From Bdellovibrionota bacterium (lineage in GTDB: Bacteria > Bdellovibrionota_C > UBA2361 > CALJRW01): a stretch of DNA of 14,287 nt. The stretch lies in the NCBI GenBank assembly GCA_041740355.1, contig JBGSMD010000033.1, positions 1-14,287 of the forward strand, in the 5' to 3' direction. How positions within the stretch are numbered: position 1 is the first letter of the stretch; every line of letters starts with the position of its first letter. The notes under the pieces are model-generated. The model made no database searches. It saw nothing but the letters and a program-made list of their open reading frames with translations, and had not been told where the DNA came from. Positions 1-14,287 of the stretch are shown one piece after another. The translations under genes were made by a program, and so were the position numbers.

Positions 1-87
1 GTAGCAATGCACCTTACTAAAGAAGATGAGCAATTCTTTGATACTTTTAGAAGGCAAATAAAACAAAAAAAGTATTATCATGCTTAA
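1..87 (+). CDS. trbD: TrbD/VirB3 family protein, 3' end (partial, runs off the window start)
   Basis: Frame 1 reads VAMHLTKEDEQFFDTFRRQIKQKKYYHA* (TAA 85-87), resembling the KxDxxFFxxxRR..Y C-terminus of TrbD. It overlaps the trbE ATG by 8 nt (ATGCTTAA), the canonical position. Not in the supplied ORF track. Confidence 0.8.
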   Translation, partial: VAMHLTKEDEQFFDTFRRQIKQKKYYHA

Positions 88-2506
88 CTTAAAACAGTAT
101 AAAGAAAATCCTGATTGCTTATCTGATTTGCTACCATTTGCAGCACTTGTTTCAAATAGTGTTGTATTAAATAAAGACGGATCGTTTCTTTCAACCTTTA
201 AATATAGAGGTCCTGACCTTGATTCTGAAACAGATGGAAGTTTAATTGCAATTAGCGCCAGAATTAATAATATTCTAAAAAGATTAGGCTCAGGATATGC
301 CATTTATGTTGAATCAAAACGAGACGAAGTTAAGTTTTATCCGAAATCATATTTTCCAGACTACATTAGCTATTTAATTGATGAGGAACGAAGAGCCGAA
401 TTTATGTCGGGAGATAACTTTGAGTCTAGTTATTACCTGACTCTTGTTTATTTACCACCAAAGGAAATTTATAATAAAGTAACAAATAAGTTTATTGAAA
501 GTAAGGAAGAGGTCGGGGCTAGAAGTTATCAGCTAATACTTAATAATTTTCAGATTGAAATTGAAAGGATCTTAGGACTTCTTGCAGGTGTTTTTCACGA
601 AGTTGATATTCTAAAAGAGTACGAGTTGCTAACTTATCTTCATTCCACAGTTTCTAGTAAAGATCACAAGGTTAGAGTTCCAGATAATCCAGTATACCTA
701 GATTCAATTTTAAGTGATTCTGATTTACTAACAGGATTTGAGCCAAAGCTTGGAAATAAATTTATCAAGGTAGTTTCAATTAGAGCCTATCCAACCGCAA
801 GTTATCCAGCAATCTTAGATAAATTAAATCATTTAAGTATTAAGTACCGCTTTGTTACAAGATTTATTTCCCTTAATAAGTTAGAAGCAGAAACAGAGCT
901 TCGCCGTTATAAGAAAAAATGGTTTGCAAAAAGAAAGGGCGTATTAACTCTTCTTAAGGAAACAATAACTGGGGAAACAAGTGTCATGGAAGATTCGGAC
1001 GCTGTTAATAAAGCAATTGATGCGGAGAGTGCCTTAGAGGAATTGCAGGACGATCAGGTAAGGTATGGATATTTTACTGCGGTAGTAGTTCTTATGGATG
1101 AAAGCCTAGAAGTAGCAAGTCAGTCAGCAAAGGAAGTGGAAAGAGTTATTAATAGTCTTGGTTTTAGTACTAAAATTGAGCAGGTAAATGCTGTTGATGC
1201 ATTCCTTGGAAGTATTCCCGGGAATACTAGAAATAATGTTAGGAGGCCAATTGTAAATACTCTAAATCTCTCGCATCTCATGCCAGTATCTTCTGTTTTT
1301 GCAGGTGAACTTACCAATCAGCATTTAAAAGCAGAGCCACTATTTTTTGCTAAAACAAGTGGAAGCACTCAATTTCGTTTTAGTCCTCATGTTGGGGATG
1401 TGGGACATACCCTTGTTCTTGGACCAACTGGAGCTGGAAAGTCAGTGCTTCTTAATTTAATGGAGGTACAGTTTTTAAGATATGAAAATGCCCAAGTGTA
1501 TATATTTGATAAGGGAGGAAGTGCCAGAACACTAACCTATGGGGTAGGAGGCGATTACTATGATCTAGGATCTGAAAAATCAGCACTTTCATTTCAACCA
1601 CTTGCCAGAATTAATGAAGATAGGGAACTTCGTTTTGCACATGACTGGATACTAGATATTTTTATCCAAGAAAATATAAAAATTAATCCTGTAATTAAAG
1701 ATAATTTATGGATTGCTCTTAAAAGTTTAAGTACGGCTCCAAAATCTGAGAGAACTATCTTTGGACTAACAGTACTTTTACAGGAGGAACAACTTAGAAA
1801 GGCACTTCTTCCTTATACGATAACTGGGGCGTATGGAAATATTCTTGATCGAGAGGCAGATAATTTAAGTTATGGCTTTTGGCAGTGTTTTGAAATGGAA
1901 ATCCTAATGGATACTCCAAGAATTATTATGCCAGTCCTTTCTTATTTGTTTCATAGATTAAAAGAGAGATTTAAAGGGCAACCAACTCTACTAGTTCTTG
2001 ATGAAGCTTGGATTTTTTTAGATAATCCAGCTTTTCAAAGTAAAATTCGGGAATGGTTAAAGGTTTTAAGAAAATCAAATGTTGCCGTAGTCTTTGCTAC
2101 TCAAAGCCTAGCTGATATTGATGAGAGTGAAATCAGCCAAACTATTAAGGAAGCTTGTCTTACAAAAATATACCTCCCTAATAGTGTTGCTCTTAATTAT
2201 GAAGTAAGTGCCATTTATAAAAAATTTGGGTTAAATGACCAGCAAATTAGAATTCTTGCTACAAGTATTCCCAAGAAGGAGTATTATTATACTTCCCCAC
2301 TTGGAAATAGAATTTTTGAATTGGGGTTAGGGGAGATTGCCCTTACATATCTTGCAGGAACAAGTAAGGAGAAGCAGAACTTAGTTAATGAGATTAAAGA
2401 AAAGTCGATTGAAACCTTAGGGTTTAATATTGAGTATTTAAAATCTCAGGGGTTGGGTGAGGTAAGTGAATATCTTTCAAAACATAAAAATGAAGTAGTC
2501 TTTTAG
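80..2506 (+). CDS. trbE: Conjugal transfer ATPase TrbE (VirB4 family)
   Basis: 808 aa. Typical TrbE N-terminus (LSDLLPFA..VVLNKDGSF..YRGPDLDS), DVGHTLVLGPTGAGKS Walker A, LLVLDEAW Walker B, IREWLKVLRKSN.AVVFATQS. Confidence 0.97.
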   Translation: MLNLKQYKENPDCLSDLLPFAALVSNSVVLNKDGSFLSTFKYRGPDLDSETDGSLIAISARINNILKRLGSGYAIYVESKRDEVKFYPKSYFPDYISYLIDEERRAEFMSGDNFESSYYLTLVYLPPKEIYNKVTNKFIESKEEVGARSYQLILNNFQIEIERILGLLAGVFHEVDILKEYELLTYLHSTVSSKDHKVRVPDNPVYLDSILSDSDLLTGFEPKLGNKFIKVVSIRAYPTASYPAILDKLNHLSIKYRFVTRFISLNKLEAETELRRYKKKWFAKRKGVLTLLKETITGETSVMEDSDAVNKAIDAESALEELQDDQVRYGYFTAVVVLMDESLEVASQSAKEVERVINSLGFSTKIEQVNAVDAFLGSIPGNTRNNVRRPIVNTLNLSHLMPVSSVFAGELTNQHLKAEPLFFAKTSGSTQFRFSPHVGDVGHTLVLGPTGAGKSVLLNLMEVQFLRYENAQVYIFDKGGSARTLTYGVGGDYYDLGSEKSALSFQPLARINEDRELRFAHDWILDIFIQENIKINPVIKDNLWIALKSLSTAPKSERTIFGLTVLLQEEQLRKALLPYTITGAYGNILDREADNLSYGFWQCFEMEILMDTPRIIMPVLSYLFHRLKERFKGQPTLLVLDEAWIFLDNPAFQSKIREWLKVLRKSNVAVVFATQSLADIDESEISQTIKEACLTKIYLPNSVALNYEVSAIYKKFGLNDQQIRILATSIPKKEYYYTSPLGNRIFELGLGEIALTYLAGTSKEKQNLVNEIKEKSIETLGFNIEYLKSQGLGEVSEYLSKHKNEVVF

Positions 2507-2529: not shown

Positions 2530-3357
2530 TTAAGAAATAGCTTTTCTTTTGTCCCATGTTTCTAGCACAAATAGTACAACAGTATGTGCTGCATGGATCG
2601 CAAGTCTAGCATGACGTGGTTCAATATTATAACTTTTATTATCTGATCCATGTGCCGAGCTTGCATGTGTTCTAAGTGATCCAATGCCGTGAACAGTGGA
2701 GATAAGTCCACTAAGAATTGTTTTTAAGTCATTATCTTCTAAAACAGAGGGATCAAAACCCAAATGAGCTCTTACAACTGACCATAAAGGCTGAAGGTCT
2801 TTTTTATTAGGCATTTCCAGGCCTTCTTCTTCAATATAAATTTTACAAAGTGATTCTATTATATTACACGCAGAAGATAAGGCATCCTTTGGACTAACAT
2901 CTAAGGATTTTAGAGCCCTATCAAATTCAGCATTCAAAACTGCGAGATTTCTTTTCTTTATTGATTCGTTGAGGCTAATCGAGGGTGTTGCTAAAGTGCC
3001 CGCGATATTACCCCCGTCAAAATATTTAAGATTAGCTCGAGCAAGCGCATTAGAAATTGCTTTAAAGTGAGTTTGTTTTAATTCAAGTGTGACACCTTCG
3101 GCTGTGTATGACCTTTCAGTTAAATCCTCTTCCATATAGCTCTCAATTAGTTTTCCAAGAATAACTAATGGCATAACAGACTCATCTTTATTGATTCGTT
3201 GTAACCACTCCATTACTTTAACGGGCTTACTACCTGATGGGGGCTCTCCTGGAGCATCAGCATAGGCAAAGAGACGGTCAAGTGTCGCATGACTTTCGCG
3301 CCTTGGAAGTATATCCGCAAGGATCGTTATTATGGGAGCTGGAATAACTTTTCGCAT
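2530..3357 (-). CDS. Abortive-infection family protein with C-terminal Abi_C (HEPN-type) domain; probable anti-phage effector
   Basis: C-terminal half has ALSSACNIIESLCK...LSGL...GIGSLRTHASSAHG (Rx6H HEPN motif)...EPRHARLAIHAAHT, characteristic of Abi_C. The ORF track starts at TTG 3363; ATG 3357 (MRKVIPAP...) is preferred because the TTG lies upstream of the predicted transcription start. Confidence 0.85.
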   Translation of the reverse strand: MRKVIPAPIITILADILPRRESHATLDRLFAYADAPGEPPSGSKPVKVMEWLQRINKDESVMPLVILGKLIESYMEEDLTERSYTAEGVTLELKQTHFKAISNALARANLKYFDGGNIAGTLATPSISLNESIKKRNLAVLNAEFDRALKSLDVSPKDALSSACNIIESLCKIYIEEEGLEMPNKKDLQPLWSVVRAHLGFDPSVLEDNDLKTILSGLISTVHGIGSLRTHASSAHGSDNKSYNIEPRHARLAIHAAHTVVLFVLETWDKRKAIS

Positions 3358-3365
3358 ATTCAAAC

Positions 3366-3394
3366 ATTCTAGGAGGGGATAATTTTCTAGTCAA
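3366..3394 (-). promoter_or_regulatory. Sigma70-type promoter of the Abi_C gene (near-leaderless transcript)
   Basis: Minus strand reads TTGACT-agaaaattatcccctcc(17 nt)-TAGAAT-gtttgaat-ATG. Both hexamers match consensus 5/6, the spacer is ideal, only 8 nt separate the -10 from the ATG, and there is no Shine-Dalgarno. Confidence 0.75.
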
Positions 3395-3407
3395 TTCAGC
3401 TATAGAT

Positions 3408-3437
3408 TTAGCAACTTTAGTTTTCTATTAGCGATTA
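3408..3437 (+). promoter_or_regulatory. Conserved bipartite motif copy 1 (putative alternative-sigma promoter) upstream of trbJ
   Basis: TTAGCAACT-ttagttttctattag(15)-CGATTA, ending 7 nt before the trbJ ATG. The same boxes and spacing occur at 5785-5814 and 13523-13552. Confidence 0.75.
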
Positions 3438-3444
3438 GTAGCAA

Positions 3445-4170
3445 ATGAAAAGACTAGTGCTATTAATAATATTATTTTTGGGTACGGAGAAGCTTTATGC
3501 CCAAGTCCCTGTATTTGATCCAAGTAATTTCTCTCAGAATATCCTACAGGCTATCAGGGCACTTAAAAGTAATATGAATGAAGCCAAAATGATCGCAAAC
3601 GAGGTTGAAATGCTATCTAACGATGTTAAGAATTTAACGAAGCTTCCATATTCAACCGTTCATGAATTAGAGGCTCAGTTCCAAAGCCTATTTTCTGAAA
3701 TGGGTAAAATTCATGGACTAGTCGATGATCTTACTAATCTTCAGAATGAATATGAAAGGCTTTATCCTGAATTTGGTTTAATGGAGGATAAGATTGAGGG
3801 TAAAACAGTTTCTAGTCTTACAAGTGAGTGGTTAGAAGAAAGTAGAAAATCAATGCTAAAGGCTAGTGCAACAGGTGCAAAAGTTTTAGAAGATCTTCCA
3901 AGTTCTCAAAATCGAATCGAGCGACTTGTTACTGATTCCAGTAATGCTGTAGGAATTCTTCAAGCTGCTCAGGCAGGAAATGAAATAAGTGCCATGGTTG
4001 TGGGTAATTTAACCAGTTTGAATGCCCAGCTGGCGACATATAATTCAGCTCATAGTAATTACTTAATGCAAATTAATACTGGAGCTAGTATTTCACAGAA
4101 TAGGATGAAGCATGTGCTTGATGGATTAAAGCCGAATTCGGGTAAGAGGGTGCCCCTTAGTAAGTATTAG
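3445..4170 (+). CDS. trbJ: P-type conjugative transfer protein TrbJ (VirB5-like minor pilin)
   Basis: Signal peptide (MKRLVLLIILFLG..LYA|Q), VFDPSNFSQNILQA motif, coiled-coil body, S.NAVGILQAAQAGNEI motif typical of TrbJ; lies between trbE and trbL. Confidence 0.92.
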   Translation: MKRLVLLIILFLGTEKLYAQVPVFDPSNFSQNILQAIRALKSNMNEAKMIANEVEMLSNDVKNLTKLPYSTVHELEAQFQSLFSEMGKIHGLVDDLTNLQNEYERLYPEFGLMEDKIEGKTVSSLTSEWLEESRKSMLKASATGAKVLEDLPSSQNRIERLVTDSSNAVGILQAAQAGNEISAMVVGNLTSLNAQLATYNSAHSNYLMQINTGASISQNRMKHVLDGLKPNSGKRVPLSKY

Positions 4171-4185
4171 TTAGAGGAGAAATTC

Positions 4186-4269
4186 GTGATTTTGAAAATG
4201 AAGAAAGGAATTTTACCTTTTTTATTAAGTCAGCAAATCAGATCTAATGAGAGCAAACCTCAGACCTAA
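4186..4269 (+). pseudogene. Short ORF with strong RBS at the trbK position; possible truncated remnant of an entry-exclusion or other exported protein gene
   Basis: AGAGGAG (4173-4179), then GTG 4186: MILKMKKGILPFLLSQQIRSNESKPQT*. It begins like a signal peptide (KMKK plus a hydrophobic stretch), turns hydrophilic with no lipobox Cys, and overlaps the protease 3' end. Confidence 0.3.
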
Positions 4270-5614
4270 TTTTATTAGATGAGAAATTAAACCATTGATC
4301 AAAAATATTTTTTGAGAAAATAAAATAACTAGTAATCCCTGAGCCACCACTTCCACCACTCATTTCCTCTACAAGATAAATATCTTTTTTTTGTTCAGCC
4401 TTAATAATATTAAAACAAATTCCGTTTAAAATCTCTGTGGAGTAAAGGGGATAGTCACGTATACTTTTTAAGAAAGCACTTTCTGACTCACAGTTAACTT
4501 TTTCAGAATTGAAATCTAAGAAAGTAGTGCTAATGCAGATTAGATTTTCTGTGCTTAAATGCCCCTTGGACTTTTTCCAATCTACGGTATCAATTGTTCT
4601 AGTACTAATTGAAATTATATCAGCAGATTCGTTTGTATTTGACCAAATTTGAACTATTGCTGGGTGATCAACTAAAGTTACCTCCTCAGAATCTGCACTT
4701 AAAGATTTACCATTAATAGTTAAAGGTAAGCATCCTGTAAAATTTGGTTCATTAAACATGGGAGGTTTGCCATGACTCTGACAATTATCATCATTCAGTG
4801 ATGTTAGGTGCTCACGAAAGATTGTGGCAGCAAACCTTTCACTATTTAAAGAATCGTTCCTGCTACTATCCATTAAGTTGAAAATAAAGTTTGAAACTTC
4901 ATAATCGTCTTTATTTCTTTTTGGAGGAAGTTTGAAATTTTTTGTATTATCATCCATAGGAGCAATTTGCGTATGTTCTTTGGCACCAGAGAGTTGCTCC
5001 CGAGAATCTTTCAGTAATTCTAAAATTACCGAAGTTGGAATTGCAAAATTTAGATTTTGTGAGTTTGTAAGTGATGCAGTAACAACACCAATTACTTTGG
5101 ATTTATTATTTAATAAAGGTCCTCCGCTGTTACCTGGAGAGATAGGTGCCGTAGTTTGAATTATTTTTATATTATCTACATCTCTAATTGAGCTTATAAT
5201 ACCCGATGAAAATGTAGCATCGAGTCCTCTGGGGCTTCCAATTGCGTAAACATCATCCCCTATTTCTAGGTTTTGAATAGATAGTGATAGTGGGGAACAT
5301 TTTTTATAAGGTGATTTTAAGATAACAATATCGTTATATTCATCAATCCCCACAATTTCTTTGATATTTAAGTTTATCCCCTCCGAAGATATAGAAATCT
5401 TTATTTCATTTGCATCCTTTATAACGTGTAAATTAGTGACAATTAGGCAATCTTGAATGAAGAAACCGGAACCTTGCATGCGATCTGTTGATATACTTAC
5501 AACGCTAGGAAGTGCGTCCTTCATAATCTGTTGGGGTGTTTTTGTCGCAACAACTTTAATAACTATGAATATAGTTAAAAATAATAAAAGACCTAGAGAG
5601 ATTTTTTTAAACAC
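4244..5614 (-). CDS. Exported or membrane-anchored trypsin-like (S1C/HtrA-like) serine protease with an unrecognised Cys-containing C-terminal domain
   Basis: GTG start; N-terminal hydrophobic segment; GSGFFI, VTNLHVI (His), NDIVILK (Asp), AIGSPRGL, TTAPISPGNSGGPLLN (Ser), QNLNFAIP. The C-terminal half shows no recognisable PDZ. Confidence 0.9.
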   Translation of the reverse strand: MFKKISLGLLLFLTIFIVIKVVATKTPQQIMKDALPSVVSISTDRMQGSGFFIQDCLIVTNLHVIKDANEIKISISSEGINLNIKEIVGIDEYNDIVILKSPYKKCSPLSLSIQNLEIGDDVYAIGSPRGLDATFSSGIISSIRDVDNIKIIQTTAPISPGNSGGPLLNNKSKVIGVVTASLTNSQNLNFAIPTSVILELLKDSREQLSGAKEHTQIAPMDDNTKNFKLPPKRNKDDYEVSNFIFNLMDSSRNDSLNSERFAATIFREHLTSLNDDNCQSHGKPPMFNEPNFTGCLPLTINGKSLSADSEEVTLVDHPAIVQIWSNTNESADIISISTRTIDTVDWKKSKGHLSTENLICISTTFLDFNSEKVNCESESAFLKSIRDYPLYSTEILNGICFNIIKAEQKKDIYLVEEMSGGSGGSGITSYFIFSKNIFDQWFNFSSNKIRSEVCSH

Positions 5615-5693
5615 AGCAAATATGAATGTTATGTATTGCTTTAAAGCGATTGTAGAAAAGACTAAATTTTAGAGAATTCTTGCTCGATAATTT

Positions 5694-5723
5694 AAGGTAT
5701 CATCGAATAAGTGAATGGGTCAA
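5694..5723 (-). promoter_or_regulatory. Candidate sigma70-type promoter of the protease gene
   Basis: Minus strand TTGACC-cattcacttattcgatga(18)-TACCTT, with a TGn extended -10, about 80 nt upstream of the GTG. The -10 is only a 4/6 match. Confidence 0.4.
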
Positions 5724-5784
5724 GAAGTATTGAGCTATCTCCTTCTATTATAAAGAACAAGAAAAATCTCAGATTAAGAAATTA

Positions 5785-5814
5785 TTAGCAACTAATCAAT
5801 CCGAACTCCGATTA
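5785..5814 (+). promoter_or_regulatory. Conserved bipartite motif copy 2 (putative alternative-sigma promoter) upstream of trbL-F-G-I-lipoprotein-traF
   Basis: TTAGCAACT-aatcaatccgaactc(15)-CGATTA, ending 39 nt before the trbL ATG. Confidence 0.75.
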
Positions 5815-5847
5815 TGTCATTAGAGCCTTCAAGCTTTATGACATGAT
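5811..5847. repeat. Inverted repeat/hairpin between the promoter motif and the trbL start
   Basis: ATTATGTCATTAGAGC-CTTCAA-GCTTTATGACATGAT: about 15-bp stem with one bulge and two G-T pairs. The perfect core is ATGTCAT-N17-ATGACAT. Confidence 0.6.
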
Positions 5848-5853
5848 TATTAA

Positions 5854-7122
5854 ATGACCCCAGATACTGATTCACTTACATTAATTTTAGATACTTTTCT
5901 TGATGCCTTTAGCTTAGGGAGAACTGCCGTTGGAAGATCGGCAAATAGCTTACTTGCTATCCTTGCAACGCTTGAAATCCTAATGGCCGCGATCTGGTGG
6001 ACAATTACTGGTAGTGATGTGGTGGTTAAGTTCTTAAAGAAGGTAATTCTCATTGGGTTCTTTATTTGGATAGTGGAAAGTTGGGATAGTTTAGTAGGAA
6101 GTGTAATTGCAGGTTTTATATATACTGGGGAGACTGCTGGAGCAACCGCAGGCGGTAATATTGTAAGCCTTGAGAATCCATCTGCAATAGTTGATGCTGG
6201 GTTTAATGCAGTGCTCCCCATTTTTGAACATCTTAGATCTTTTGATTCTTATTTTTCAGCAGTTTCAAATCCAATTGATTTAATCATTGCCCTTCTTGCT
6301 TCAGTTTTAATTATTGGTTCCTTTTTTGTCCTAGCCATTCAAGTATTTATTACAAGATTAGAGTTTGGATTAATGGCAACTCTAGGCCTAATTCTTATTC
6401 CTTTTGGAGTGTATAGGCATACTGCCTTTCTAAGTGAAAAAGTTTTTGGGGCGTTAATATCCTTTGGGATAAAGCTCATGATCTTATCATTTATTATTTC
6501 AATTACATTTCCAATTTTAATTCAGTTTAAAGTACCAGCCGATCCCAGTTGGATTGAAATGCTTAATATGGTCTTAGTTTCGATGTCAGTGATGATTTTA
6601 AGCTGGCATGCCCCAAGTGTTGCTACAGGGTTACTTTCTGGAAGCCCAAATTTATCAGCAAGAGATGTAAGTGGGGCAAGTATGACGGCAAGTCACGCGC
6701 TAAGTCAGATTGTTAAACAGTCAGGAAGTATTGGTAGTAGTACTAAGGGTGCAACGGCAGTAGCAAGTAGTGCAACAGTGAGTTCCGTAAGCACAGTAGG
6801 AAAAGTTGCAAGTTTTGGAGCAGGGATGGCAGTTGGAGCTTATAACTCCCCAGGAAGCACCATTAAAAATTTTGGAGAACGAGCTTTTAGTGTCGGTAAA
6901 GAAGTCTTGTCTTCAAGTTTTAGCACAGAAGGTAAGACTTCAAAAAATTCTCTTCGCGAATCATTTAATAGTGGCCGTGAGGTAAGAGTTTCAAAGGGTA
7001 AAATGCAGGGAGAAAATCTAAGAGAGGCAGAAAATACTAGCCCAAAAGTGAAAGAAGGCACTCAAAATGAACAGGCAGTAAAAAGCCTAAAATCTAAGTC
7101 AACAAATACAAGGAGTAAATAA
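5854..7122 (+). CDS. trbL: P-type conjugative transfer protein TrbL (VirB6 family)
   Basis: Multiple TM helices; LAIQVFITRLEF.L....GLILIPFG...TAFLSEK..G....GIKLMIL; P.VATGLLSGSP.L followed by the usual Ser/Ala/Gly-rich tail. Confidence 0.95.
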   Translation: MTPDTDSLTLILDTFLDAFSLGRTAVGRSANSLLAILATLEILMAAIWWTITGSDVVVKFLKKVILIGFFIWIVESWDSLVGSVIAGFIYTGETAGATAGGNIVSLENPSAIVDAGFNAVLPIFEHLRSFDSYFSAVSNPIDLIIALLASVLIIGSFFVLAIQVFITRLEFGLMATLGLILIPFGVYRHTAFLSEKVFGALISFGIKLMILSFIISITFPILIQFKVPADPSWIEMLNMVLVSMSVMILSWHAPSVATGLLSGSPNLSARDVSGASMTASHALSQIVKQSGSIGSSTKGATAVASSATVSSVSTVGKVASFGAGMAVGAYNSPGSTIKNFGERAFSVGKEVLSSSFSTEGKTSKNSLRESFNSGREVRVSKGKMQGENLREAENTSPKVKEGTQNEQAVKSLKSKSTNTRSK

Positions 7123-7124
7123 CT

Positions 7125-7829
7125 ATGAGTAAAGAAATGTTAGCTACTCCCCAATCTAATAAAGTGGAGTGTTTTCCTGAAACTCCGTTTCTTCGAGCCA
7201 AGGAAGAGTGGGATAATCGAATTGGAAGCTCTGTTGTACAAGCTAAAAATTGGAGGCTAGTGGCAATTATTTTAAGTATTAGTTTTCTAATGTTAAGCAC
7301 GGGTAGCATTTATCTTGGAAGCTTAAAAAAGGAAGTTCCAATTATAGTAACACTTGATTTGAGTAGCGGACAAACAAACGTCCTTGGTTTTGCTAAGTCA
7401 ATTAAGTATGAACCTAGAATTCAGGAAATTAAATATTTCCTAAGTAGTTTTATTAATAAGGTAAGAGCAGTACCAATTGATCCAGTCATTATCAAGCAAA
7501 ACTGGAATGATGCCTATGTCTTTTTAAAAAGAGAAGCAGCAATAAAATTAAATAATCAGGTAAATACAGATAAAAATAATCCCTTAAATAATATTGGCAC
7601 TGAAACTGTCATAGTTGAGCCAATATCAGTAAATCAAGTAGCAAACAGCTCCTCTTATCAAGCAAGGTGGAGTGAAACTAGATATAATAAAAATGGCGGA
7701 TTAATTGATTCTTATACAATGAGTGGAGTTTTTAGCTTAGAAATTGAAACTCCAGATAGTGAAGCAGTAATTAGAGTAAATCCACTTGGAATTTTTATTA
7801 CCAATTTTAGTTGGAGTAGGGAGCTATGA
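7125..7829 (+). CDS. trbF: Conjugal transfer protein TrbF (VirB8 family)
   Basis: PETPFLRAKEEWDNRIGS..VQAKNWRL, single TM, VRAVPIDPVIIKQNW..AY.FL, SYQARWSE, NPLGIFITNFSWSREL; AGGAG RBS at 7111-7115. Confidence 0.96.
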   Translation: MSKEMLATPQSNKVECFPETPFLRAKEEWDNRIGSSVVQAKNWRLVAIILSISFLMLSTGSIYLGSLKKEVPIIVTLDLSSGQTNVLGFAKSIKYEPRIQEIKYFLSSFINKVRAVPIDPVIIKQNWNDAYVFLKREAAIKLNNQVNTDKNNPLNNIGTETVIVEPISVNQVANSSSYQARWSETRYNKNGGLIDSYTMSGVFSLEIETPDSEAVIRVNPLGIFITNFSWSREL

Positions 7830-8815
7830 AGATACTGCAAGTTTTGTTTGTTTTAACACTTATACCTCAAATATTAATTGCTGATGAAGGGTTAAGTTCC
7901 AACAACAAGCTTTTAAGTCTTATGGAAGAGAGCGAAGAGGCTATAAAACAAAAAGATAAAGTGACTCACTTAGATCTTTTACCTCAGACTTTAGATAAAA
8001 AAGATACCTATCAGGAAATGGTTAGTCTTTTAGATGAGGTTGAGCAGTTAAAGTCAAAAGTTGTTGCTACTAAACAAAACAGTTTAGCAACTTCTAAGAT
8101 GAAGAGCCAAAAGAAGGAAGGAACTATTACTTATTATAATTACTCAAAAGGAACTATTTACGAGCTGTACGCAGGCGTCGATCGGGTAAGTGATATTGTT
8201 TTACAAGCTGGGGAGAAGTTAACTAACAATCCAATCTCAGGAGATACCGTTAGGTGGAAAGTAGTTAGTACTGAAAGTGGCATGGGGGGAGACCAAGTGA
8301 CTCATATTCTTGTTAAGCCTCTTGAAGAGAAAATTGAAACAAATTTTATAATTACAACAAATCGGAGAACCTATCACATAAAAGCAATCGCAACTGATTG
8401 GTATATGCCTCAAATATCTTGGAATTATCCAGATGATGAGTTTGAGAATATTAAGCAGGAATCAATAAAAAGAAAGGAACATGAAAGTAATCAGGAAGAA
8501 GTTCAGTTTAGTGCGGAAGATTTAGACTTTAATTATGAGACTGACGGAGATGAGTTTTTTACTCCAATTCGTATTTTTAATGATGGAGCTAAAACTTATA
8601 TCCAGATGCCAAAAAATGTTGAGAATCGGGAAGCTCCAGCACTTTTTATAATTGAGGCGGAGAGTGTTCTTCTTACCAATTACCGAGTTAAGGGTAATTA
8701 CTATATTTATGATGGAATCTTTAACACAGCACAGCTTCGAATCGGACAAAAGCAAATTGTAAATATTTATAAAGATGGTTTTGGTCCATCATTATTTAAG
8801 AAGATATTTGGATGA
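7826..8815 (+). CDS. trbG: P-type conjugative transfer protein TrbG (VirB9 family)
   Basis: Signal peptide; SDIVLQAGEKL, GDTVRW, HILVKP...TNFIITTNRRTYH, YMPQISWNYP, LDFNY...P.RIFNDGAKTYIQMP...EAPALF...NYRV. ATGA overlap with trbF. Confidence 0.95.
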   Translation: MKILQVLFVLTLIPQILIADEGLSSNNKLLSLMEESEEAIKQKDKVTHLDLLPQTLDKKDTYQEMVSLLDEVEQLKSKVVATKQNSLATSKMKSQKKEGTITYYNYSKGTIYELYAGVDRVSDIVLQAGEKLTNNPISGDTVRWKVVSTESGMGGDQVTHILVKPLEEKIETNFIITTNRRTYHIKAIATDWYMPQISWNYPDDEFENIKQESIKRKEHESNQEEVQFSAEDLDFNYETDGDEFFTPIRIFNDGAKTYIQMPKNVENREAPALFIIEAESVLLTNYRVKGNYYIYDGIFNTAQLRIGQKQIVNIYKDGFGPSLFKKIFG

Positions 8816-9951
8816 GTGAAAAAAATCTAAAGCTTCGTACTCAAGTACCAAATATAGTTGGGATTCATAAGAGAAATGTAATGGCGTTACTAGGATTAGT
8901 GCTACTTATATTATTAACTATAATTGTCTTTGCTACAGGAAAAGTTAAGCCTAAGACTAATAACTCAAAATCTTTATCTGGAGTGGTTAAACCTGGAGAA
9001 TTAATCAGTTCTCTTCCTGAAAATTATCAATCTCTTACAGATGATAAGCCTAAGAGCTTTAGTAATAAAGAAATTTATCATGATAAGGGACAACGTGGGG
9101 AGGATTTAGAAGCAAAGCTTTTAGAGCAGGAAAGGCTTAGACGAATAAAAAGAGCAATTGAAGCTAGGGAATCAGAGTTAAGTTTTAAGGGAGATAAGAA
9201 AGTTAGTGAAGAGATAAGTTATAGGGGGAGTGATCCTCAAAACTTAACTAATGCTAATCACTTTGGACTCACACAAAGTGAACGTGATACTGATAATCGG
9301 CAAGACGATAAGTATGAATTTTTAAATCGTCCGCGTGAAAGTAAAACTGAGCTTTTAGAGAAGATTAAGGAATCTAAGACTCCATATGAGCTAAAAGCAG
9401 GAAGTCTTATTTCAGGATTACTTCTTACTGGAATTAGTAGCGATCTTCCTGGGCAGATCCTTGGACAAGTAAGTAGAAATATTTATGACTCAGTAAGTGG
9501 TAAATATCTTTTAATTCCAAAAGGAGCACGTGTTCTTGGGGAGTATGATAGCAGGGTAAGCTTTGGACAAGAACGAGTTCTAGTTGCGTGGACAAGACTA
9601 CTATTTCCAAATGGTGACTCAATTAACTTAGGCTCAATGGCTGGTGCTGATTTGCAGGGGCTTTCAGGACTAAAAGATCGAGTTGATAATCATTACGATA
9701 AGTTAATTACTGGAGTTATTTTTGGTTCAGTTTTTGGAGCTGGGGCTCAAATGGCAAGGGGGGAAAATAGAACAGTAGATCCAAGCTTTACGCAGTTAGC
9801 ACTTGAAGGATCGGCACAAAATATTAACCAAGCTGGGCAAACAATCACTAGAAAAAATTTAAATATCCAGCCAACTCTAGAAATTGGGGCAGGGGAGAGG
9901 TTTAATATCTTTGTAAATAAGGATGTAGTTTTACGCCCATATAAGGAATAA
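8812..9951 (+). CDS. trbI: Conjugal transfer protein TrbI (VirB10 family)
   Basis: N-terminal TM; PYELKAGSLI...LLTGISSDLPG...GQVSRNIYDSVSG..LLIPKG.R..G.YDS.V.FGQ.RVLVAW.RL.FPNG, D.VDNH, LNIQPTL, FVNKD.VLRPY. ATGA overlap with trbG. Confidence 0.96.
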   Translation: MSEKNLKLRTQVPNIVGIHKRNVMALLGLVLLILLTIIVFATGKVKPKTNNSKSLSGVVKPGELISSLPENYQSLTDDKPKSFSNKEIYHDKGQRGEDLEAKLLEQERLRRIKRAIEARESELSFKGDKKVSEEISYRGSDPQNLTNANHFGLTQSERDTDNRQDDKYEFLNRPRESKTELLEKIKESKTPYELKAGSLISGLLLTGISSDLPGQILGQVSRNIYDSVSGKYLLIPKGARVLGEYDSRVSFGQERVLVAWTRLLFPNGDSINLGSMAGADLQGLSGLKDRVDNHYDKLITGVIFGSVFGAGAQMARGENRTVDPSFTQLALEGSAQNINQAGQTITRKNLNIQPTLEIGAGERFNIFVNKDVVLRPYKE

Positions 9952-9956
9952 GAGAA

Positions 9957-10304
9957 ATGTTAAAAGTCATAATTACTTCTCTGGTAATACTTACTTTAGG
10001 TTGCAGTACTAAAAACTCTCAACACTTACAGGGCTATAATTTTAATTATAAAATTGATAAGCCTGAAAATAACGATCTAATTCAGATCTTTGATGATGGA
10101 GAAAAAACTTATCTTCATATCTTTGAGTTAAGTAATAAGAAAGAGCCAAGCGTTACTGCATTAAAAATTGGAGAAGATAGCCCTAAAAGAAAATATTACA
10201 AGATAGTTAATAGTTATATTGTCCTTGATGGACTCTTTAAGGAGGTGGACGTTAATTCAAATGGGAAAGTTACCAAGATAAGCCAAGATGAAAATCAGAA
10301 GTAA
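9957..10304 (+). CDS. Lipoprotein consisting of a stand-alone VirB9/TrbG C-terminal-like domain
   Basis: Lipobox LTLG|C at residue 16. YNFNY...QIFDDGEKTYL...YIVLDGLF aligns by eye with LDFNY...RIFNDGAKTYI...YYIYDGIF of TrbG in this window. Confidence 0.75.
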   Translation: MLKVIITSLVILTLGCSTKNSQHLQGYNFNYKIDKPENNDLIQIFDDGEKTYLHIFELSNKKEPSVTALKIGEDSPKRKYYKIVNSYIVLDGLFKEVDVNSNGKVTKISQDENQK

Positions 10305-10827
10305 GCGGGCACTAAGTCTGCTATTCGCTAGTTTACTGGTAATTGGGATTAGCATTACTGCAAATCAGATTTTAGGAAAATTATTTTATATTAATCTTTC
10401 AGCAAGTATGCCACGAGGGATATATAGAATTTCAAGTGGGGAAATTAAGAAAGGGGATACTGTAATTTTTAGCGTACCTCAGGGGTATCAAGAACTAGAC
10501 TTTCTTAAGAATCGTAAAAACCTAATTAAAGAAGTTTATGGGGTAGCGGGGGATAGGTATTGTATTACTGAGAAGGGTATAAGCTTAAATAATAAATTTA
10601 TTGCCTCTAGACTTAAAGGCTTCAAAAAAAAGATTGGTTGTTTTCAAGTTGCACCAGATCATATTTTACCATTAGCACTTTATAAGCCTGACTCTTTTGA
10701 TGGGCGGTATTTTGGGGAGGTGAAAGCGATAAAAGTTAGGAAGTTTAAGATTATCGATAATCTTCAGAACAACTTTGTAGTTACTAACAAAAGCGATGAT
10801 TTTCATCTAAAGTTGAAACGTATTTAG
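10288..10827 (+). CDS. traF: Conjugative transfer signal peptidase TraF (S26 family, pilin maturation/cyclisation)
   Basis: N-terminal TM, INLSASMPRGIY (catalytic Ser region), LIKEVYGVAGD (catalytic Lys region), DSFDGRYFG. Overlaps the upstream gene by 17 nt. Confidence 0.9.
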   Translation: MKIRSKRALSLLFASLLVIGISITANQILGKLFYINLSASMPRGIYRISSGEIKKGDTVIFSVPQGYQELDFLKNRKNLIKEVYGVAGDRYCITEKGISLNNKFIASRLKGFKKKIGCFQVAPDHILPLALYKPDSFDGRYFGEVKAIKVRKFKIIDNLQNNFVVTNKSDDFHLKLKRI

Positions 10828-10844
10828 GTGTCGTCATTGCCTAG

Positions 10845-13280
10845 TTATACTGGTGTCGTAGCTACTGGAGGAACTGGATTTCTAATTGCATCAATAATAA
10901 ATAGGTACCTGTCTATGTGTTGTAATAATTCAGTTAATATAGAAGATGCTTCTTTGTCCGCGTGAAGAAAATTTGCATAATTACAATATTTATAGACCTT
11001 CTCTATTATATCTAGATCTGTGTCTGTCAAACGTTTTATTTTACTATTTGCATCTTTCAATCCAGTAGTGAGATTTGAAAAATTATCATCTTTATTCCAT
11101 AGTAATAAATCATTTTTGATAAAACGCTCAACTGATAAACGCAATAGGTGACCATAAGTTATGGTTGCTTCTTCTACGCTCAATGTTCCCCCAGCCGCTT
11201 TTGTAACTAATGACTGATGACAACCTTTCAATGTCGCATGTAAATCAAAATTTGAATCAACGTATATCAATGAACCTTTAAAAGCGGTAGTGTTTTTTAG
11301 GATTCCAAATTTACTGGGATTAGGACGTTCTTTTTTTACAAGATATTTATAAAATAAGGGATGGTGTGTAAAAACAAAAACTTGAGAATAGATATTTACT
11401 TGTTCAAAAATTGCATCAGAAAGAATTTTTAAATTTGATGCGTCTAAACTTGTAATCGGGTCGTCAAATATTAATATTTTTCCCCCTTTGTCAGCGGTAT
11501 TTTCATTTATGGCAAAAAAGAATGCTAATGAAATTAATTGTCTTTCCCCCTCGGATAATCCAGTTTTAATATTTCTCTCTCTTCCTTTTAAATCAAGTAC
11601 TTTAAAGGAAAATGGAACCTCTAAAGTTGAGCCTGTGACACGATTTGGTTCTAAGGTGAATGAAAGATTAAACCTGTTTAAAAATACCATCATCTTCGAC
11701 AAAATCAACGTCGGAGCTTGTGTAAGAATATATGTTTTTAAATCCTCTTTTGCAGTATTATTGGCTAATTTTAATACTTCCTTTTCATCTTTAAGCTTAT
11801 TCCATTCTTTAATTAGAGAATGATAATTTTTGTCGAAATAATCTTTAAGGTCTGAAGATTTAATGAGTTCTGATTCTTTTTGTTGAATTTCTTGGTCGAT
11901 AGTTGCAACGTCTGAATACCTTGCCTTAAAAGCAATGATCTTGTCTGTGTATTTTTTTAATGATTCAGTTGCGATAACTACTACAATTTTAATATCGTTT
12001 AAATGAGTAGAAATTTCCCTGTAGTCCTTATTAAAATCATAAGCGTTATTGTCTACAGTTTTTAAATTTCCTAGTGCAACTAATAAATTGTCAATGGCTT
12101 TTGAGCAATTTATAATAGTGCTCAATTTCTCTTCTATGGGGTAGCGTTCTCTAAACGCCTCTAAAGTATCTACTTCTGTTGAATTTTCGTCTAAATTCTT
12201 ACCAACATTGTAGTTAGTCCAAAATTCAGATAATACGTTGAAAGAATGATTTATCCTGCTTGGAAGTAAAGAAACAGCTTCTTTTAAGTCAGTTAAGCTA
12301 GATTTTATCAATTCAATCTCTGAAATATATTTGGCTTTCTGTTCTTTGTAGGTTTGATTGAAAAATGCTGAATATGAATTTATTATTTCCTCTTGAGATT
12401 TTAAAGATTGCAAACAAAAGGGACACTCCTCTTTATTTTCTGAGGATTCAATAACTTGAAGACCTTTTTCAATAAATTGCTTATGTCTTGAGATATGTTT
12501 TATTAAATTTTCGCTTGCAATTTTTGATGAGTTATCTTCAATTTTACGAGTAAATATTTCCTGGATTTCTGAAATGGGAACTAGCTCTTTTGTAAGTGTT
12601 ACTTCAACAGGAAGAGTGAATGAAGCAACATTTGATGTTTGATTTTTTCTTACCTTAAGTTGTTCAATATCATCCGAAGAATTTTTATGTTTGCTAATAT
12701 TAGCATCCTTTAATTCAACTAATTCTGCTTCTGACTTTTCGTTATGAGTAACATATATTTCTAGGTCTTTAGGTAAAAAGGTTTGATTTAATTTTATAGT
12801 ATTTGTATCTTCAAAGTCCTTTAACGCCTTTGCCGTATCTATTTCAGATTGCTTTTTCCTGTTTGCTTCTGCATCAAGATCTATTAATAATTTGCCTGAA
12901 TTTTGGCTATGTTTATTTCTTTCATTACTCCTTTCCCCATTTGTATGTACGTTTTCGTCAATAAAAGTTTGGTCGAAAAATAAAATAGAATTTTGCGGCA
13001 ATGAGTTGTCCCAAGCATTTGCAGTATAGTTATATAAGTTATTATCAACTTTTAATTGAATTGAATTTGGCTTGTCACAATTATTACTGAAAGGTCTATT
13101 ATCAGAGAGGTCTTTTAGAATTTCACATATTGAACTCTTACCACTTCCATTCTCACCAAATAGTACATTATATGGACAAAAAGATTTTTCAACACCAGCT
13201 TGATCAATGCAGAATTCTGACCAATTAAAATCAACAAAGGACTTGTACTCTTTAATATGATTTATTTTCTTGATTTTCAT
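10845..13280 (-). CDS. rloC: RloC-like Rad50/SMC-type ABC ATPase (AAA_13) with zinc hook and C-terminal HEPN-type anticodon-nuclease domain
   Basis: Walker A FGENGSGKSS; Q-loop region FFDQTFIDENV; long coiled coil with central CPFC zinc hook; signature LSEGERQLISLAFF; Walker B/D-loop ILIFDDPITSLD; H-loop VFTHH. C-terminal LRLSVERF (Rx3E) plus NFLH matches the PrrC/RloC Arg-Glu-His triad arrangement. Confidence 0.8.
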   Translation of the reverse strand: MKIKKINHIKEYKSFVDFNWSEFCIDQAGVEKSFCPYNVLFGENGSGKSSICEILKDLSDNRPFSNNCDKPNSIQLKVDNNLYNYTANAWDNSLPQNSILFFDQTFIDENVHTNGERSNERNKHSQNSGKLLIDLDAEANRKKQSEIDTAKALKDFEDTNTIKLNQTFLPKDLEIYVTHNEKSEAELVELKDANISKHKNSSDDIEQLKVRKNQTSNVASFTLPVEVTLTKELVPISEIQEIFTRKIEDNSSKIASENLIKHISRHKQFIEKGLQVIESSENKEECPFCLQSLKSQEEIINSYSAFFNQTYKEQKAKYISEIELIKSSLTDLKEAVSLLPSRINHSFNVLSEFWTNYNVGKNLDENSTEVDTLEAFRERYPIEEKLSTIINCSKAIDNLLVALGNLKTVDNNAYDFNKDYREISTHLNDIKIVVVIATESLKKYTDKIIAFKARYSDVATIDQEIQQKESELIKSSDLKDYFDKNYHSLIKEWNKLKDEKEVLKLANNTAKEDLKTYILTQAPTLILSKMMVFLNRFNLSFTLEPNRVTGSTLEVPFSFKVLDLKGRERNIKTGLSEGERQLISLAFFFAINENTADKGGKILIFDDPITSLDASNLKILSDAIFEQVNIYSQVFVFTHHPLFYKYLVKKERPNPSKFGILKNTTAFKGSLIYVDSNFDLHATLKGCHQSLVTKAAGGTLSVEEATITYGHLLRLSVERFIKNDLLLWNKDDNFSNLTTGLKDANSKIKRLTDTDLDIIEKVYKYCNYANFLHADKEASSILTELLQHIDRYLFIIDAIRNPVPPVATTPV

Positions 13281-13313
13281 TTCTTAATTGTCTTCGGAAT
13301 CTTTTTTATAATA

Positions 13314-13346
13314 AGGTTTATCCAAAGATTGGATTTTATAAAACCT
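13314..13346. repeat. Nested inverted repeat upstream of the rloC-like gene
   Basis: AGGTTT-ATCCAA-aga-TTGGAT-tttata-AAACCT: perfect 6-bp inner arms and 6-bp outer arms. Confidence 0.4.
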
Positions 13347-13357
13347 CTACAACCGAA

Positions 13358-13429
13358 CACTTTTTAGAGTTGGATTGTTTTACTGATAAGCCAGTAGAAA
13401 TAGTCAAAATCTCAACTGCTAAAGGCGTG
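13358..13429 (+). other. Long imperfect hairpin (about 72 nt) in the divergent intergenic region
   Basis: CAC-TTTTTAGAGTTG-GATTGTTTTACTG-ataagc-CAGTAGAAATAGTC-aaaatct-CAACTGCTAAAGG-c-GTG. The arms pair along their length with single-base bulges and several G-T pairs. Confidence 0.5.
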
Positions 13430-13522
13430 ATGATCTGAATTAATTAGTAAGATATGGGGAAAATCTAAGAAAAGCAATATAGAATAGCTAGCATAAGCAG
13501 TAATAAAATTATTAGTAAAATA

Positions 13523-13552
13523 TAAGCAACTTCCCAACTGTTCTCACGATTA
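13523..13552 (+). promoter_or_regulatory. Conserved bipartite motif copy 3 (putative alternative-sigma promoter) upstream of the 114-aa ORF
   Basis: TAAGCAACT-tcccaactgttctca(15)-CGATTA, ending 29 nt before GTG 13582. Confidence 0.75.
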
Positions 13553-13581
13553 GGTAACAAATATTTTTTTGTGAAAGAAGC

Positions 13582-13926
13582 GTGAAGGAAAAGAAATTAG
13601 CACCAATATTTGAATACGATCCCCCTGATAACTTTTTGTGTACTCCAGAAGAGCTCTTATTAATTGCCGTTATTAAGAATGCAATCGCAGATTATCTTTT
13701 TATCTATGAAAATATCTATTTTACTGATTCCGAGTTAAGAGAAGGTAACAGGGCAAATAAATGGCTTTTTGAAGAGCGAGAAGATGACAAAGAGTGGCCA
13801 TGGACGTTTAACTGGATCTGTTGCCAGTTAGAAGAGCTAAATCATGTAACAAATATTAAAAGTATAATTTTAAGTCATGTTGCAATGAGAAGAGATGAAA
13901 TCATTGAACATCAATTAGCAGCTTAA
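13582..13926 (+). CDS. Uncharacterised small acidic helical protein
   Basis: GTG start, 114 aa, preceded by motif copy 3. The pattern PEExLLxAVIxxAIxDY...A.KWLF...WPWTF.WIC..L looks like a conserved hypothetical family. Confidence 0.75.
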   Translation: MKEKKLAPIFEYDPPDNFLCTPEELLLIAVIKNAIADYLFIYENIYFTDSELREGNRANKWLFEEREDDKEWPWTFNWICCQLEELNHVTNIKSIILSHVAMRRDEIIEHQLAA

Positions 13927-13940
13927 ATCTCGTTTACGTT

Positions 13941-14287
13941 ATGTTTATGAAAGAAATACTAATTTATTTAACAAGCTTTGTATTATTTATCAGTGCTGTA
14001 AATGCTGAGCCTCAATTTGTAAGAAGTAGTTTGCTTGGGAATTCTAGTAAAATTACTTTAACAGCAACTAATCCAACTGCTATTTTCTGGGAACTCTCTA
14101 AGGGCAATCAAAGTATTCCACTAAGAATTACAGTAAACGGAGGTAAAGAATTTAACCTAGAAGCTAAAGCACAAAGATTTTCAGGTAATACTAAGAAAGC
14201 ATTAATTAAAAAGACTGGATGGTACAAACTAAAACTTAAAAATCAGAATGAACATGTAAATCAATTAGGAAACTGTGGTGAAATTAA
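13941..14287 (+). CDS. Secreted hypothetical protein, 5' part (runs off the window end)
   Basis: Open from ATG 13941 (or 13947) to the end: MFMKEILIYLTSFVLFISAVNA|EPQFVRSSLLGNSSKITLTATNPTAIFWELSKGNQSIPLRITVNGGKEFNLEAKAQ... It has a Sec-type signal peptide ending VNA and starts 14 nt after the previous stop. Not in the ORF track. Confidence 0.75.
   Translation, partial: MFMKEILIYLTSFVLFISAVNAEPQFVRSSLLGNSSKITLTATNPTAIFWELSKGNQSIPLRITVNGGKEFNLEAKAQRFSGNTKKALIKKTGWYKLKLKNQNEHVNQLGNCGEI

Follow-up and report, generated by a model that had tools for sequence, protein, structure and literature searches.

A bipartite promoter-like motif heads each transfer unit of a putative Trb-type conjugative plasmid in Bdellovibrionota and points to control by a host alternative sigma factor

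The window analyzed here, an entire contig (C33; 14,287 nucleotides [nt]) of a Bdellovibrionota genome (G000; 3.27 Mb, 36% G+C, 74 contigs), carries genes for a P-type (Trb) type IV secretion system (T4SS), and all five transfer units of the plasmid to which it most likely belongs are headed by the bipartite motif AGCAACT-N15-CGATTA or a close variant of it. Sequence statistics and comparative genomics, from which all of our claims derive, lead us to think it rather probable that this motif acts as a promoter for an alternative sigma factor of the host, the most likely reader being a group-3 sigma factor encoded on contig C20 within a type-III-secretion-like gene cluster. The plasmid would, in that case, probably turn on mating via a host alternative sigma factor; we infer promoter identity, transcription start sites, and sigma assignment alike from the patterns laid out below.

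The motif has the features of a probable promoter

Three exact copies of the motif (13 box bases) lie on the + strand of the window (Table 1), reading TT, TT, and TA followed by AGCAACT, 15 nt, and CGATTA. Their spacers are unrelated in sequence, and the distance from CGATTA to the start codon is 7 nt for trbJ, 39 nt for trbL, and 29 nt for the open reading frame (ORF) at 13582 (orf114). An initial annotation of the window had put forward these three copies, with their positions, strand, unrelated 15-nt spacers, and distances of 7 to 39 nt to start codons, and all of these were reproduced here. When up to two mismatches were allowed, the window held four matches against a shuffle mean of 0.38, a count reached by 0 of 200 shuffles. 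Across the whole of G000, the exact motif occurs seven times (0.14 expected from base composition), and no copy of the exact boxes has a 14- or 16-nt spacer.

A looser strict core, CAACT-N15-CGAT[AT]A, gave the same preference for spacing, with 23 matches in G000 at N15 versus 3 to 13 at spacings 11 to 14 and 16 to 19 (4.7 expected). These matches tend to fall outside open frames of at least 100 amino acids (aa), as 16 of 23 did at N15, compared with 5 of 40 at the other spacings and 632 of 4,000 random windows (15.8%). When every 5-mer preceding CGAT[AT] was counted without preselection, CAACT at distance 15 came out at the top (53 versus 18.2), with TAAAT at the equivalent register weakly enriched (70 versus 42). 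In 24 aligned sites, C, G, and A are each present in 23, as is the T, followed by A or T and then mostly by A; the −10 CGA core (GCCGATAA-like, as in sigma-28 promoters) is found as CGATTA or CGATAA in every transfer-unit copy. The two boxes are asymmetric and unlike each other, are co-oriented with the downstream gene, and end 6 to 46 nt before start codons, and the + strand of the three window gaps contains no sigma-70-like match. Being specific in spacing, strand, and location around unrelated spacers, the motif supports the earlier proposal of a promoter signature rather than a duplication.

All five transfer units of the plasmid are headed by the motif

The T4SS gene set is complete, comprising TrbB, C, D, E, J, L, F, G, and I plus the TraF peptidase. 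TrbE, TrbJ, TrbF, and TrbG exceed their NCBIfam equivalog cut-offs, TrbL, TrbI, and TraF are matched by Pfam/NCBIfam models, and TrbC, VirB3, and VirB11 are encoded on contigs adjoining C33 (trbB on C58 matches T2SSE at 3.6e-40). The start of C33 overlaps that of C40 by 141 nt (window 1-141 matches C40 1-141 in reverse complement), the end of C40 overlaps the starts of C1 and C14 by 86 nt each, the end of C58 overlaps the start of C60 by 89 nt, and the ends of C1 and C60 abut within the coupling-protein gene. Pfam models identified RepA (RPA family) and ParA on C40, and the relaxase unit (C1/C14) encodes a TrwC-type relaxase, with no match to the relaxase model PF03432, and a TrwB-like coupling protein. 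The contig-end overlaps, together with RepA and ParA, imply a circle of ~49 kb (C33-C40-C1-C60-C58/C33), of which one arc is taken from a second variant and in which the small contig C45, also overlapping C40, is unplaced. The element is most likely a conjugative plasmid. Its second variant (B; contigs C23, C58, and C14), 82 to 96% identical in DNA, either shares the same cell or belongs to a second strain of the sample. The arc toward the relaxase unit carries an ArdA antirestriction gene close to its start (C1:344-892 and C14:344-892), with a DUF2130 gene and a receiver-domain-like gene further along the same arc.

The five transfer units are trbC-D-E; trbJ; trbL-F-G-I-orf115-traF; orf114-orf355-trbB; and orf81-orf111-relaxase-coupling protein. 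Outside the window, an exact copy stands 46 nt before trbC, followed by trbD and trbE (C40:699, minus strand), and another precedes the second trbJ, in variant B (C23:2301); in both variants, exactly 7 nt separate CGATTA from the trbJ start codon, be it ATG or GTG. AACAACT-N15-CGATTA precedes orf114 of variant B, followed by orf355 and trbB/VirB11 (C58:2622), and ACAACT-N15-CGATAA (C1:3241 and C14:8075) precedes an 80/81-aa ORF, downstream of which lie a 111-aa ORF, the TrwC relaxase, and the TrwB-like coupling protein. Copies had been anticipated upstream of trbC, of the trbB unit (here at window 13525 as well as on C58), and of the relaxase and coupling protein, and each was found. In total, the plasmid contigs (73.5 kb) hold 8 of the 23 strict core matches of G000; the remaining two exact copies lie before a mazE/mazF-like pair (C51:47181) and inside lexA (C30:106700).

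In the mechanism that we propose, (A/G)CAACT(T) would serve as the −35 element and CGAT(T/A)A, 15 nt away, as the −10 element, and once the host sigma factor is active, polymerase would start ~6 to 8 nt after CGATTA at all five units, giving co-expression of the pilus, channel, ATPases, relaxase, and coupling protein. Given one promoter copy per transfer unit, all mating functions would fire together whenever the sigma factor is active. Further, because each unit would have its own promoter, cargo on the opposite strand could be accommodated between units without silencing the genes downstream.

A secretion-linked group-3 sigma factor is the candidate reader

Sigma region 2 was matched by 17 proteins of G000, namely, an RpoD-like, an RpoH-like, a canonical FliA, three divergent group-3-like, and ~10 extracytoplasmic function (ECF)-like proteins, with no such match on the plasmid contigs. 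Only one of the 17 genes, the secretion-linked gene on C20 (C20:74884-75597; 238 aa), has the relaxed motif within 300 nt upstream, as CGCAACT-N15-CGATAA at −138; it was found at 0 of the 16 others, including all of the ~10 ECF-like genes. The initial annotation had predicted a copy upstream of a sigma-factor gene, which the C20 gene provides, and had suggested a dedicated or host alternative sigma factor, noting box features typical of ECF promoters and a resemblance of CGATTA to the sigma-28 −10; the candidate found here is a host-encoded group-3 (FliA/SigF-like) protein, not an ECF factor. It scores 74 bits on TIGR02479 (FliA_WhiG; cut-off, 189.6), and its nearest solved relatives are FliA proteins (E 4.5e-10).

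The C20 cluster runs from the sigma gene through genes for an SctJ/YscJ-like lipoprotein, a 96-aa ORF, an SctV/FHIPEP protein, and a TPR protein, with a second motif copy before the 96-aa ORF of the 96-aa–SctV unit. A variant, AGCAACT-N15-CGAATA (C64:24820), heads a run of a 96-aa ORF, a 257-aa ORF, and FliP/SctR-, FliQ/SctS-, FliR/SctT-, and FlhB/SctU-like genes. The type-III-secretion-like set of the host as a whole (SctJ-, SctV-, SctR-, S-, T-, and U-like) spans C20:71335-75774 and C64:21438-24820.

The association extends to orthologues in other genomes of the host's order (designated G001, G002, etc.; 91 genomes in the order set). Of 30 orthologous sigma loci, two with <200 nt of upstream sequence were dropped; in 20 of the remaining 28, the relaxed motif for these loci, G[GC][AC]AACTTT-N13-CGA[TA], lies 57 to 231 nt before the alignment start, compared with 1 of 28 in antisense and 0 of 28 in in-gene controls. 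Such a pattern is what one would expect if the sigma gene were transcribed from the type of promoter that its product reads, and the C20 sigma factor is accordingly proposed to activate its own gene from the same kind of promoter as the transfer units. The sigma-YscJ pair is kept in six of seven loci scanned (G002, G026, G008, G034, G013, and G004; it was not seen in G033) and also in G040; it is conserved across the order, flagellated members included. By association, the C20 protein appears to be the most likely reader of the motif.

The motif as a proposed host promoter class

A survey of motif patterns in 61 genomes of the order suggests that the core is a promoter class of the host rather than a peculiarity of the plasmid. 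The core exceeds its reversed control in many of these genomes, in others not; the counts were 24 versus 3 in G002, 38 versus 3 in G026, 31 versus 3 in G033, and 29 versus 4 in G023. G002 is a sister species in the same genus as G000 and has no TrbE or TrbL match. In G000 itself, the motif also heads the type-III-secretion-like operons and some toxin-antitoxin genes. The view of the motif as a conjugation regulon, advanced initially, therefore holds in that all five transfer units are headed by it, but not in the sense of being specific to conjugation, given its presence before host secretion and toxin-antitoxin genes and in a sister species without the plasmid.

The toxin-antitoxin-type genes with the core upstream are C51:47181 (mazE/mazF-like), C26:24975 and C19:374 (BrnT-like by eye), and C39:59514 (HicA-like by eye); the Pfam check of these proteins covered the MazF-like and RHH proteins. 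Few of the proteins downstream of host motif copies have family matches. The exact copy in the 3′ part of lexA (C30:106673-106700, minus strand) lies 183 nt before recA and is preserved almost unchanged in G001 and G002; it could act as a promoter for recA within lexA or could simply be conserved coding sequence. A repeated family of the form ttacaCAACTaatt-N-CGAA(t/c)a occurs 18 to 28 nt before paralogous ORFs of ~325 to 341 aa, some of them truncated (C13:1054; C16:249336, 236723, and 232392; C39:103769; C51:14084, 22060, 11690, and 4264; C26:28181), and looks like a multi-copy mobile gene carrying a variant of the same promoter.

The motif marks the borders of variable cargo

At four junctions (window 3408, 5785, and 13516; C1:3237), homology between plasmid variants resumes 2 to 9 nt before the motif, with differing DNA upstream. 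Specifically, homology to variant B restarts at 3408 (C23) and 13516 (C58), C1/C14 homology restarts 4 nt before CAACT, and at 5785, a variant contig in DNA run X1 diverges upstream of that point. Comparison of the window with four DNA runs, X1 among them, brought out structural variants only. The AbiJ-like gene of the window is replaced in variant B by a + strand 323-aa ORF, and a DUF4124 gene follows trbJ there. Variant B is also without the AAA_13 gene, having 50 nt in place of window 10726-13515, with the motif kept and no cargo present; a run X1 contig skips window 10725-13641. C14 carries an extra 632-aa gene, and related elements have trbE, trbJ, and trbL side by side. The cargo insertion points behave like fixed hotspots between transfer units. 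In variant B, cargo genes lie at C23:1057-2028 and 3166-3981 and at C14:6063-7961 and 8428-8955, and the three cargo genes of the window are defense-like (AbiJ-like, RT-Protease_XI-protease-like, and AAA_13/PDC-S06-like).

Related Trb elements

A TrbE match was found in 12 of the 91 order genomes, G000 included. The closest element lies in G040, a host of another family (TrbE 63% identical). At its unit heads stand five + strand copies of AGGAAACTTT-N13-CGATTAA: trbC is preceded by two, trbI and trbB are each followed by one, and the fifth falls between traF and orf355 (Table 1). In the same genome, the secretion-linked sigma gene has GAAACTTT-N13-CGATGA at −96, such that the −35 flavor is common to the Trb element and the host sigma gene both in G040 (GAAACTTT) and in G000 (GCAACT), the two hosts in which this comparison was made. 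The G040 copies, and not those of G000, share much of their spacer (e.g., GGAAAAAAT), which suggests recent duplication or a second binding site. The search for family-level relatives covered three genomes.

Organization of the window

The features of the window are collected in Table 1, together with the G040 copies.

Table 1. Features of the window, and the motif copies of the G040 element, with the matches on which each is based
Feature	Position	Strand	Basis or remark
trbD 3′ end (VirB3-like)	1..87	+	Gene runs on into C40; C40:55-312(−) matches Pfam VirB3; TAA at 85-87
trbE (VirB4-type ATPase)	80..2506	+	NCBIfam NF010447 TrbE, 1108.7 bits, above cut-off
AbiJ-like cargo gene with Abi_C domain	2530..3363	−	Pfam Abi_C 4e-19; PADLOC AbiJ 1.1e-14
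Sigma-70-like promoter match facing AbiJ-like gene	3366..3394	−	TTGACT-17-TAGAAT, 10/12 positions, consensus match only
Promoter-like motif before trbJ	3408..3437	+	TTAGCAACT-N15-CGATTA, exact match
trbJ	3445..4170	+	NCBIfam TIGR02780 TrbJ_Ti, 124.6 bits, above cut-off
Trypsin-like serine protease, cargo	4244..5614	−	Pfam Trypsin_2 1.2e-23; PADLOC RT-Protease_XI protease part 4e-24
Promoter-like motif before trbL	5785..5814	+	TTAGCAACT-N15-CGATTA, exact match
trbL, trbF (VirB8), trbG (VirB9), trbI (VirB10), orf115 (VirB9 C-terminal-like), traF (S26 peptidase)	5854..10827	+	Pfam and NCBIfam; ORFs contiguous/overlapping
AAA_13/PDC-S06-like ATPase, cargo	10845..13280	−	Pfam AAA_13 4.1e-30; PADLOC PDC-S06 3e-29
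Promoter-like motif before orf114	13523..13552	+	TAAGCAACT-N15-CGATTA, exact match
orf114 and start of orf355	13582..14285	+	Gene order from variant B contig C58, where trbB (VirB11) comes next
G040 promoter-like copies	L130 (G040:C78) 2491, 3021, 11344, 13134, 15577	+	Pattern match

Neither orf114 nor orf355 has a family match in Pfam or NCBIfam. Directly 3′ of the CGATTA before trbL, in the presumed trbL 5′ leader, lies an inverted repeat, TGTCAT-N17-ATGACA (window 5815-5843). Within the trbL unit, the short orf115 (9957-10304) is paralogous to the C-terminal part of TrbG/VirB9 (Pfam CagX 6e-09), and a direct repeat between 9957-10304 and 8563-8607 (orf115/TrbG) is 78% identical. Variant B retains the gene, and related elements do so weakly.

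Weighing the evidence and alternative explanations

Several observations weigh against a promoter read by the C20 sigma factor. At the level of the motif, one-mismatch copies of the 13-base form number 11 at N15, 18 at N16, and 1 at N14 in G000; as N15 shows no excess of these, the exact form makes up a narrow subset of the looser core, of which 7 of 23 matches fall in coding-like sequence. At trbJ, the 7 nt that separate CGATTA from the start codon contain no ribosome-binding sequence, which implies a leaderless mRNA, and translation of trbJ would need to be leaderless. The −35 CAACT (GAAACT in relatives) is unlike the TAAA of sigma-28 promoters and the TTAAG reported for Bdellovibrio bacteriovorus (PMC3627812), and with the sigma factor assigned by association, canonical FliA could also read a CGA-type −10. 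Heads of SctR-type operons in five relatives had the relaxed motif in 3 of 10 loci; for the best SctR-type match per genome, the motif was present in G001 and G033, present with one mismatch in G002, and absent in G040 and G026. Finally, among seven other mapped Trb loci of the order, only that of G040 has the motif at its unit heads. Two loci (G032:C98 and G054) have one candidate each, and the motif is absent from unit heads of the elements in G023, G018, G079, G032:C70, and G001, even though the five hosts covered by the sigma search (all but G079) do carry the sigma factor. A TrbL search across genome contigs gave six loci, none with the strict motif and one (L035) with a relaxed match inside a long coding frame. 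Since most related Trb elements lack the motif, use of this promoter class is patchy rather than general to the element family; the conservation that one would look for in related elements extends to variant B and G040 but not to most other Trb elements of the order.

One alternative explanation, to which we give a small but real share of probability, is that the promoter is read by the canonical FliA of the host (C16:20838-21596). CGAT(A/T)A contains the CGA core of sigma-28 promoters, and CAACTT aligned on the E. coli AAAGTT gives the same spacing; the C16 protein scores 244.8 bits on TIGR02479, above the cut-off. Given that no flagellin match was found in G000, FliA would be retargeted to other genes in this host, as proposed for the attack-phase genes of Bdellovibrio; in B. 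bacteriovorus, FliA is a global non-flagellar regulator (PMC3627812). However, the C16 gene has no motif within 300 nt upstream and instead shows sigma-54-like boxes, TGGCAT-N5-TTGCA, ~60 nt before its start (by eye; the same boxes lie ~145 nt before the ECF-like sigma gene at C20:69452). In five flagellated, motif-rich relatives, the relaxed motif stands upstream of only 2 of 27 flagellin genes (29 loci, 2 dropped for short upstream sequence), and these upstream regions, by eye and by pattern, show no common promoter for most and sigma-54-like boxes in 3 of 27. The −35 also differs from TAAA, and TAAG-N16-CCGATA, the B. bacteriovorus FliA pattern, is not clearly above control in the order (7 versus 4 in G000). 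A reader among the ~10 host ECF-type sigma factors, or among two divergent 261-aa sigma-like proteins on C6, is quite improbable. An AAC in the −35 with a CG-initial −10 located 16 nt after it is common ECF geometry, and the genome has many ECF-like genes, but the 16 sigma genes other than C20 lack the motif within 300 nt upstream, two ECF-like genes have other candidate promoters (by eye, with CGTC-type and TCTAA-type −10 elements), and the −10 here is CGAT rather than the CGT followed by C or A of the reference consensus.

The boxes could instead be the binding site of an activator or repressor with an unrecognized promoter nearby, a reading that we consider unlikely. Contact with RNA polymerase is, after all, itself a supposition from the pattern of the boxes; on C1 and C14, the motif comes shortly after a receiver-domain-like gene of 149 aa; and G040 spacers are partly conserved (GAAAAAAT), which may reflect an extra binding site. 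Against this stand the dissimilar, asymmetric, and always co-oriented boxes at a short distance from start codons, and the three window gaps, in which a + strand sigma-70-like promoter is absent. As the motif is also abundant in the sister species, which has no plasmid, the host would have to encode any such factor. A recombination or attachment site for cargo cassettes is very improbable. The motif does sit exactly at the right-hand edge of four variable regions, one site being "empty," but this reading was rejected because no direct or inverted repeat of the motif was found at the far ends of the cargo segments. Moreover, the spacer sequence varies between copies, and in many genomes of the order, the same motif stands before chromosomal operons that show no signs of cassettes; trbC is likewise headed with no variable region seen there.

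Relation to known systems

In its bipartite layout, CGA-core −10, and fixed long spacer, the motif resembles the sigma-28 promoters of E. coli class 3 flagellar genes and of B. bacteriovorus attack-phase genes. Characterized sigma-28 promoters carry a −35 of TAAA; the −35 here is (G)CAACT(T) or GAAACTT, rather than TAAA or TTAAG, and flagellin genes of the relatives mostly lack the motif. The candidate sigma factor, further, lies far below the FliA_WhiG cut-off and is located in a type-III-secretion-like cluster. A group-3 sigma factor would be the reader in both systems, and the Bdellovibrio regulon likewise reaches far beyond flagella: among 140 attack-phase promoters of B. bacteriovorus, 92 have TTAAG-N16-CCGATA, a pattern attributed to FliA (PMC3627812). 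Among mobile elements, Tn916 offers a parallel in that its own split sigma factor, Sig7-8, activates its own gene and drives the conjugation genes, which are thus read from a promoter of the alternative-sigma kind and not from a sigma-70 promoter under repressor control (bioRxiv 10.64898/2026.10.01.756105). The Tn916 factor is element encoded and made of two subunits, acts at one main promoter, and operates in Gram-positive hosts. The plasmid studied here, in contrast, has no sigma gene on its contigs, carries at least five copies of the putative promoter, has a Trb (P) T4SS, and would share a host sigma factor with secretion genes.

A secretion-cluster-linked sigma factor with a bipartite promoter heading each apparatus operon is also known from HrpL, an ECF (group 4) protein, and the hrp box; the linkage to a secretion cluster and the operon-head promoters are alike, while the box and the sigma group differ, and we know of no link between HrpL and conjugation genes. 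The trb operons of IncP and Ti plasmids, which are controlled by KorA/KorB/TrbA or TraR, have the same gene set (trbB, C, D, E, J, L, F, G, I, and traF), but the genes here are distributed over several units, and every unit has a putative promoter of the alternative-sigma type. Among the plasmid ORFs scanned against Pfam, which are those outside C60 and most of C14, there was no LuxR-type or KorB-type protein. As for the cargo, SXT/R391 elements have variable-region hotspots between conserved transfer genes, and in both cases, cargo, often of defense genes, occupies fixed intergenic points of a conserved transfer backbone and differs between variants. What differs here is the copy of a shared putative alternative-sigma promoter after each insertion point and the backbone, a Trb-type plasmid in an uncultured Bdellovibrionota-like host.

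Implications

Textbook control of P-type transfer genes is by repressors or quorum sensing acting on sigma-70 promoters, and our literature searches turned up no paper describing sigma-28-type control of trb genes, or promoters of that type or for a host alternative sigma factor before every unit of a trb cluster. Here, the whole transfer apparatus is apparently under a host alternative sigma factor shared with a host secretion machine. A broader proposition, which we offer tentatively and would not yet bet on, is that this Trb plasmid family gave up repressor control and wired every transfer operon to the sigma-28-like factor of a type-III-secretion-like apparatus, making mating part of the contact or secretion program of the host; the repeated promoters would also make the T4SS operon modular, with defense genes insertable without silencing. 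If true, such a plasmid would time mating by tapping a developmental or contact program of its host, a simple sequence signature would predict when such plasmids transfer, and the presence of defense cargo inside a T4SS cluster without polar damage would be explained. Beyond the plasmid, these results bring into view a so far unstudied sigma factor, with its regulon, that spans an order of Bdellovibrionota-like bacteria.

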